DNA from: Escherichia coli
GTDB taxonomy: Bacteria; Pseudomonadota; Gammaproteobacteria; Enterobacterales; Enterobacteriaceae
Assembly: GCF_003334355.1 (NCBI RefSeq)
Contig: NZ_QOWP01000083.1
DNA: 1,659 bases
Reading direction: 5' to 3' (one strand)
The notes under the pieces are model-generated. The model saw only the letters and a list, made by a program, of their open reading frames with translations. It was not told the DNA's origin and did not search any database. This document shows positions 2 through 1,273 of the stretch, one piece after another; within the stretch, counting starts at the first letter, position 1, and every line of letters begins with the position of its first letter. The position numbers and the translations under genes are program-made.

Positions 2-1273
2 GTTTATGACCCGACGGTACAGTTTGAGTTCTGGTTCTCGGAAAAACGGATTGCGGATATCAGGCAGGTTGAAACCAGCGCGCGTTATCTTGGTACGGCA
101 CTGTTCTGGATAGCCGCCAGTATCAATATCAAACCGGGCCATGATTATTATTTTTACGTTCGCAGTGTGAACACCGTTGGCAAATCGGCATTCGTGGAGG
201 CTGTCGGTCAGCCGAGTGATGATGCATCAGGCTATCTGGATTTTTTCAAAGGCGAGATAGGGAAAACCCATCTGGCTCAGGAGCTGTGGACGCAGATTGA
301 TAACGGTCAGCTTGCGCCTGACCTGACTGAAATCAGGACGTCCATAACGGATGTCAGCAATGAAATAACACAGACCGTCAATAAGAAACTGGAAGACCAG
401 AGTGCAGCGATCCAGCAGATACAGAAGGTTCAGGTTGATACAAATAATAACCTGAACAGCATGTGGGCAGTGAAGCTGCAGCAGATGCAGGACGGACGCC
501 TTTATATTGCGGGTATCGGTGCCGGTATTGAGAACACCCCCGACGGCATGCAGAGTCAGGTGCTGCTGGCGGCAGACAGGATTGCGATGATTAATCCTGC
601 AAATGGCAACACAAAACCGATGTTTGTTGGTCAGGGTGATCAGATATTCATGAATGAAGTGTTCCTGAAATATCTGACGGCTCCCACCATTACCAGCGGC
701 GGTAATCCTCCTGCATTTTCCCTGACACCGGACGGAAAGCTGACCGCTAAAAATGCAGATATCAGTGGCAGTGTGAATGCGAACGCCGGGACGCTCAACA
801 ACGTTACGATAAATGAAAACTGTCAGATTAAAGGGAAACTGTCAGCCAACCAGATTGAAGGCGATATTGTCAAAACAGTGGGTAAGGCTTTCCCGCGGGA
901 CTCCCGGGCACCGGAGCGGTGGCCATCAGGGACCATTACCGTCAGGATTTATGACGATCAGCCGTTTGACCGGCAGATTGTTATTCCGGCGGTGGCATTC
1001 AGCGGTGCTAAACATGAGAGAGAGCATACTGATATTTACTCCTCATGCCGCCTGATAGTGAAGAAAAATGGTGCTGAAATTTATAACCGTACCGCGCTGG
1101 ATAATACGCTGATTTACAGTGGTGTTATTGATATGCCAGCTGGTCACGGCCACATGACGCTGGAGTTTTCGGTGTCAGCATGGCTGGTAAATGACTGGTA
1201 TCCCACAGCAAGTATCAGCGATTTGCTGGTTGTGGTGATGAAGAAAGCCACCGCAGGCATCAGTATCAGCTGA
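2..1273 (+). CDS. J: Host-specificity / central tail-fibre (tail tip) protein, lambda J family; C-terminal ~423 aa, 5'-truncated by the window edge
   Basis: The reading frame is open from nt 2 with no stop until TGA at 1271-1273. The first 55 codons translate as [55 protein letters not shown] and join the track ORF (167..1273) in frame, so the ATG at 167 is an internal Met, not the start. From memory, the translation closely resembles the C-terminal third of lambda gpJ (motifs [76 protein letters not shown] at the C-terminus). The position immediately upstream of a lom homologue matches lambda gene order (J then lom). Confidence 0.9.

Follow-up and report, generated by a model that had tools for sequence, protein, structure and literature searches.

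Organisation of the J-lom locus

In the stretch of Escherichia coli DNA analysed here (1,659 nt, hereafter the window), the 3' part of a J-type tail-tip gene is followed by a terminator-like hairpin and by the 5' part of a lom-like gene, with the features arranged as follows:

2..1273, plus strand: J-type tail-tip (central tail fiber) gene, 3' part, comprising 423 codons and the stop; its 5' end falls beyond the window
2..247, plus strand: FNIII-2, second fibronectin/Ig-like domain, conserved with lambda (Pfam Ig_J_second PF24489, residues 2-82, E = 7.6e-30)
248..616, plus strand: first divergent block, long alpha-helical shaft and top of the beta-prism fiber (28-residue gap relative to lambda)
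617..823, plus strand: lower beta-prism fiber (CSF), conserved (inside Pfam Phage_Tail_Tip PF09327, residues 136-264)
785..877, plus strand: junction of fiber and receptor-binding domain, A8-type, residues 262-292 (30/31 identity to A8 gpJ)
878..1270, plus strand: Ig-like C-terminal receptor-binding domain of the 1A2/VT1-Sakai class (Pfam Ig_GpJ_C PF12421, residues 293-423, E = 2.4e-37)
1292..1317, plus strand: intrinsic terminator-like hairpin and T-run between J and lom (8-bp stem with 6 G-C pairs, then TTTTTTATT)
1341..1659, plus strand: 5' part of a gene for a lom-like (Ail/Lom family) outer-membrane protein, running off the window (PHROG 108 'Lom outer membrane protein', E = 1.1e-53)

The J reading frame runs from nt 2 to the stop codon at 1271-1273 through 423 codons without internal stops. 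Its product aligns to residues 737-1132 of lambda gpJ, represents the last 37% of a lambda-type tail-tip protein J and was assigned to PHROG 2148. Furthermore, it matches the NCBIfam model lambda_TipJ (NF049904) with 721.9 bits over profile positions 736-1163, the curated cut-off of 1950 bits being set for the whole protein, of which the N-terminal 736 profile positions fall outside the window. The three Pfam families PF24489, PF09327 and PF12421 are all found with E <= 1e-29 in the C-terminal domain order of a lambda-type J, that is FNIII-2, helical shaft, beta-prism fiber and Ig-like receptor-binding domain, the domain names being taken from the lambda tail-LamB structure paper (PMC11101478). 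No Pfam family covers J residues 83-135. The position of J within a tail gene cluster is apparent as well: J, terminator and lom all lie inside the window, and the full tail order (..L, K, I, J, lom, stf) is seen both in the closest E. coli match described below and in phage PhiR55_1.

Downstream of J, the hairpin at 1292-1317 has a folding energy of -15.7 kcal/mol (z = -2.9), and terminators are annotated at the equivalent position between J and lom in phage 21 and mEp460. The lom-like protein is 33% identical to lambda Lom. At the DNA level it shows 78-100% identity to the lom of mEp460; VT1-Sakai and PhiR55_1 lom match it less well in parts, with 65-68% over nt 1381-1440. Across its whole length, the window matches a prophage in E. 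coli 23CRST009 (NZ_AP045766.1, locus 1-19077) at 99.9% DNA identity; the RefSeq annotation there includes a gpJ of 1159 aa and an Ail/Lom family protein. This prophage adjoins ybhB-bioA and is degraded: its tape-measure gene is split by IS1203, IS3 lies within the side tail fiber gene and one head gene is truncated, while J is intact.

The Rfam search returned no RNA family on either strand of the window, and the antisense open reading frames of 30-61 aa all lie inside J or lom. Repeat scans of the window gave only short two-copy matches, which are probably due to chance. At the junction of fiber and binding domain, positions 810-845 hold an imperfect 17-nt direct repeat (TAAATGAAAACTGTCAG / TAAAGGGAAACTGTCAG, 19 nt apart); it sits exactly where the sequence classes of J change, and may be a chance occurrence or reflect repeated beta-strand motifs. 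The two strands of the window showed no further notable feature.

Alternating conserved and divergent blocks in J

The J fragment was aligned with lambda gpJ from NC_001416 (protein NP_040600) and identity was profiled along its length. It amounts to 91% over residues 1-80, falls to 22% over residues 81-130, where the 28-residue insertion is located, then rises through 37% (131-165) and 55% (166-205) to 90% over residues 206-274, and drops to 43% (64/150) over residues 275-423, encoded by nt 824-1270. The contrast at the second breakpoint, between residues 206-261 (50/56, 89%) and residues 275-423 (64/150, 43%), is highly significant (Fisher P = 6e-10). The original prediction, that J departs from lambda in its C-terminal part, is thus borne out: the last 149 codons are 43% identical to lambda compared with ~90% just upstream, the C-terminus is less conserved than the block that flanks it, and both the breakpoint (about nt 800-830) and the peptide by which it had been marked are correct. 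The accompanying statement that J is nearly identical to lambda up to nt 830 turned out to be wrong, residues ~84-205 (nt ~250-616) being 22-55% identical with an insertion of 28 residues. Hence, given this second divergent block at nt ~248-616, conserved and divergent blocks alternate twice along the J gene, which makes it a mosaic and not a divergent tip on a uniformly conserved scaffold.

Over the shaft block (nt 248-616), where identity to lambda is 22-55%, the window is 96-100% identical to phage 21, VT1-Sakai and PhiR55_1. The helical shaft is 28 residues longer in the window than in lambda; the extra residues, if helical, would add roughly 4 nm to the length of the fiber. The segment that follows (nt 617-823) shows ~90% protein identity to every J compared, and it acts as the linker through which the two variable blocks are recombined. 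Within it, the DNA of nt 721-780 has 1 mismatch relative to lambda and mEp460 and 12 relative to VT1-Sakai, PhiR55_1 and 2G7b, although the protein encoded there is conserved in all five despite the DNA mismatches. These 60 nt look like a small patch of other ancestry, as a recombination footprint within the conserved linker would leave.

The two variable blocks occur in different combinations. The window, VT1-Sakai and PhiR55_1 join the long shaft to the binding domain of the window's class; phage 21 pairs the long shaft with a binding domain of the A8-like type; and phage Lambda_2G7b (NC_049954.1, J at 555-3950) carries the short, lambda-type shaft with a binding domain of the window's class, 95% identical to that of the window. 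As phage 21 and 2G7b show, the J C-terminus is a recombination mosaic in which the shaft block and the binding-domain block reassort independently around the conserved linker. In 2G7b, the tip module alone has been exchanged, whether naturally or in the laboratory; our literature search found no publication on the origin of the 'Lambda_2G7b / ev' phages. Moreover, lom too is an allele that reassorts independently, since it in places resembles the lom of mEp460 more than those of VT1-Sakai and PhiR55_1.

The receptor-binding domain and the 1A2 module

The C-terminal 149 residues of J in sequenced phages sort into discrete classes. The window's own class, with 88-97% identity to the window, includes PhiR55_1, VT1-Sakai, many Stx2a phages, PPompW prophages and 2G7b. 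A second class (phage 21, BP-4795 and 1717) is 60-63% identical to the window, the lambda class (lambda and HK630) 43%, and a fourth (mEp460 and 2851) 40-42%. At 41-43% identity to lambda residues 985-1132, the window lies outside the lambda class. Within its own class, it is identical to VT1-Sakai at 140 of the 149 residues 275-423, gap-free, and at 126 of 131 (96%) in the binding domain proper (residues 293-423), again without indels; over this same domain the identity is 130/131 to PhiR55_1 and 41% to lambda. PhiR55_1, for which the binding domain is also measured at 96.6-97% identity to the window's, was isolated and propagated on E. coli C, and the sole paper mentioning this phage gives no receptor data. 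The junction (residues 262-292) has another affinity, being identical to A8 gpJ at 30/31 positions (97%) versus 26/31 for 1A2/VT1-Sakai.

In the genome counts, which cover 5,426 complete E. coli genomes and matches spanning at least 80% of the query, the DNA of the window's binding domain was found in 3,364 genomes (about 62%), often in several copies each, one copy being 100% identical. The long shaft block (nt 250-610) was found in 3,562/5,426. The lambda binding-domain DNA (3458-3901 of the lambda locus) was present in 96/5,426 genomes, or 98 when any match is admitted, all at 99% identity or more, and laboratory K-12 strains are among the examples listed. Megablast with the lambda domain recovered only those copies of at least 99% identity, in 98 genomes, and no copy of the window's class. 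Hence lambda is the outlier, its class occurring in about 97 genomes against 3,364 for that of the window, and the window carries the majority form. The notion of the window's class as rare or exotic is rejected by these counts (3,364 versus 96-98 genomes): the region singled out by the original prediction is not unusual and belongs to the majority allele class among E. coli prophages.

The fold of the domain was also compared with solved J tips. A sequence search of the PDB ranked 'A8 gpJ 713' (9WCA/9WCB) above lambda, with E = 4e-172 for 9WCA. An AlphaFold2 monomer model of window residues 206-423 gave pLDDT values of 75-94 across the binding domain, which was the only part used; model residues 1-79, which belong to the fiber, stayed below 50, as expected for a trimeric beta-prism. 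The top Foldseek matches of this model were 9WCA, 8XCK, 8XCJ and 9WCB, all with probability 1.00. With a TM score of 0.70 normalised to the target and 66% identity for 9WCB, entitled 'Open state of A8 gpJ 713 central tail fiber with OmpC G17 from E. coli EDL933', the predicted fold fits that of a J tip solved while bound to OmpC. In the class alignment, indels concentrate in window segments ~296-309, 335-345, 366-372 and 395-407, and these four segments coincide with the lambda indel hotspots at 1012, 1048-1049, 1077-1078 and 1107, which Maddamsetti et al. 2018 (PMC6646904) proposed as specificity loops.

Functional data for a member of this class come from a Nature 2024 paper by Brödel et al. 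(PMC11338833), who grafted the C-terminal parts of J proteins from natural E. coli phages onto lambda J and obtained two chimeras, A8 and 1A2, using OmpC instead of LamB. The 1A2 DNA in the supplement of that paper is codon-optimised, and as machine-read it has dropped bases; a frameshift-aware protein-to-DNA alignment was used for the comparison. The C-terminal module of 1A2 (residues 275-423) differs from the window by nine conservative substitutions, at the same nine positions that separate VT1-Sakai from the window: I316V, R340K, K354R, D398N and S421T in the binding domain proper and Q275R, I276V, K277L and I289L in the junction (window to 1A2). Everywhere it is readable (the lambda part and five residues beside OCR dropouts excluded), the reconstructed 1A2 equals VT1-Sakai. 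Because the match extends to all readable positions, 1A2 is identified by this alignment as the J C-terminus of the O157 prophage VT1-Sakai (AP000400).

That study (PMC11338833) used a host lacking lamB to screen the gpJ chimeras, and quantified delivery into a host that lacks both lamB and ompC and receives ompC from a plasmid. The 1A2 particles deliver DNA via OmpC and not LamB, with more than 75% delivery at the top MOI for 20 of the 23 OmpC variants, including the G17 variant of EDL933 (98.3%, and 98-99% across the data). They fail on OmpC G1 (MG1655; about 2%), G2 and G40. The use of OmpC alleles differs between the two chimeras, K-12 OmpC being accepted by A8 and not by 1A2. One source sheet disagrees: in panel C of Extended Data Fig. 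2, the 1A2 values given for OmpC-EDL933 are those of OmpC-MG1655 in panel B (2%), which contradicts the text of the paper and three of its tables (Fig. 1b, Extended Data Fig. 1 G17 and Extended Data Fig. 8a) and looks like a copy error.

Receptor use and comparison with known J proteins

Since its binding domain is 96% identical to the 1A2 module, which redirects lambda particles from LamB to OmpC once grafted onto lambda J, the J allele of the window most likely uses OmpC, and not LamB, as receptor. The receptor specificity unlike that of lambda which had been proposed for this tip gains support from its 126/131 identity to VT1-Sakai, that is to the OmpC-using 1A2, and from a junction 30/31 identical to A8, itself an OmpC user; the match found is not to a J variant shown to use LamB. 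By analogy with 1A2, most natural E. coli OmpC variants would probably serve the allele as receptor, while the K-12 variant may not. The reasoning offered with the original prediction, that a diverged C-terminus is the usual signature of receptor switching, is in itself unreliable: phage 21 has a domain 44% identical to that of lambda, and its native receptor is LamB (PMC11336670). Indeed, sequence class does not translate simply into receptor, since phage 21 is 80% identical to A8 in the binding domain and natively uses LamB, and single substitutions matter, since I1025T adds OmpC use in phage 21.

On the model of the lambda-LamB (8XCJ) and A8-OmpC (9WCB) complexes, from which the mechanism is drawn by analogy, the three binding domains at the tip of the fiber would reach into the OmpC trimer from outside, their variable bottom loops entering its extracellular mouth. 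The fiber tip would then splay open, and the change would pass up the beta-prism and the helical shaft so that the tail tip opens for DNA ejection.

A different question is whether J is active at all in its source genome. It is rather unlikely, in our estimate, that this J is an inert remnant in a defective prophage, no longer mediating infection, a reading that concerns activity in the source genome and is compatible with the others. The damage to the prophage that matches the window at 99.9% (the two IS elements in its tape-measure and side-fiber genes and the shortened head gene) speaks for it, and so does the annotation of the VT1-Sakai J as split by mutation into two ORFs. Yet the reading frame in the window is intact, as is the full 1159-aa J of the closest genome, and PhiR55_1, which was propagated on E. 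coli C, carries a binding domain of the same class. The genes of defective prophages are, moreover, known donors in recombination.

The OmpC assignment leaves room for differences in detail between the window and 1A2. Three of the nine differences fall on host-range positions: I289 corresponds to lambda I997 and phage 21 position 1025, R340 to 1048, and D398 to lambda 1107. These three differences might give the allele a set of OmpC variants unlike that of 1A2, for instance including the K-12 type, which we regard as quite unlikely; if true, single-residue polymorphisms inside one domain class would tune porin-allele specificity in nature. The enrichment of the nine differences at host-range sites is only suggestive and was not used as evidence: P is about 0.07-0.08 when all 17 sites studied by experiment are counted, and reaches about 0.01 only with the nine sites named in the text of the paper, a list consulted after the overlap had been seen. 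In this quite unlikely reading, the allele would be a natural recombinant of an A8-type junction and a 1A2-type binding domain. Broader still would be a porin binder whose specificity differs from that of 1A2 through use of other OmpC alleles (e.g. K-12-type), or of OmpF or another outer-membrane protein in addition. The placement of the differences at the equivalents of lambda 997, 1048 and 1107 is consistent with this, as are the variation of position 398 between D, N and G within the class, the differing OmpC allele ranges of A8 and 1A2, and the A8-type junction of the window, A8 being able to use K-12 OmpC. However, all nine changes are chemically conservative and the hotspot enrichment is as weak as stated above, and such a binder is decidedly improbable.

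Finally, a domain that has diverged while still using LamB, as in phage 21, with a host range at the receptor level equal to that of lambda, is very improbable: although the LamB-using phage 21 is itself only 44% identical to lambda and 60% to the window in this domain, and the window shares the state of I289 with phage 21 and lambda and that of D398 with lambda D1107, the window is far nearer to 1A2 (96%) than to phage 21 (60%), and 1A2 was selected on a lamB deletion, its delivery in the double mutant following the plasmid ompC allele.

As a probable OmpC-binding tip, the region is ordinary: its class has been described and put to use, and the biology is already known. Modular divergence of the J specificity region in natural prophages was described in 2018 across 1,207 homologues; the domain class of the window has already served to redirect lambda particles to OmpC, and a sister class has been solved bound to OmpC. 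As a discovery the finding matters little. Its value is one of annotation: members of the class, which occurs in ~62% of complete E. coli genomes (Stx-phage-rich O157 strains among them), can be annotated as probable OmpC binders, with the LamB-binding tip of lambda as the exception among its relatives.

Among the J proteins with receptor data, 1A2/VT1-Sakai is closest, with the same domain length, a long shaft 96-98% identical in the natural VT1-Sakai J, and lom as the next gene, as in the window; the nine substitutions and the A8-type junction set the window apart. A8 gpJ (9WCA, closed; 9WCB, open and bound to OmpC G17 of EDL933) has the same fold and the same C-terminal ending and is an OmpC user, but its binding domain proper is 57% identical to that of the window, with loop indels that align with lambda 1012 and 1048-1049. 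In phage 21 J (OL657228), the long shaft and upper fiber are 96-100% identical to the window and the junction carries the same residue (I1025 for I289), whereas the binding domain proper, 60% identical, belongs to the A8-like class; its native receptor on K-12 is LamB (PMC11336670). Phage 434 and the EHEC siphophage phi330 are natural OmpC users via J-type fibers (PMC12502783), each with a central fiber trimer docking onto trimeric OmpC; their binding domains are reported to be only 35-40% identical to each other and to lambda (PMC12502783). Lambda gpJ itself (8XCK; 8XCJ with LamB) shares with the window the domain order, the fold and the gene order J-terminator-lom, and its FNIII-2 and lower fiber are ~90% identical to those of the window, but its shaft is 28 residues shorter and 22-37% identical, and its receptor is LamB.
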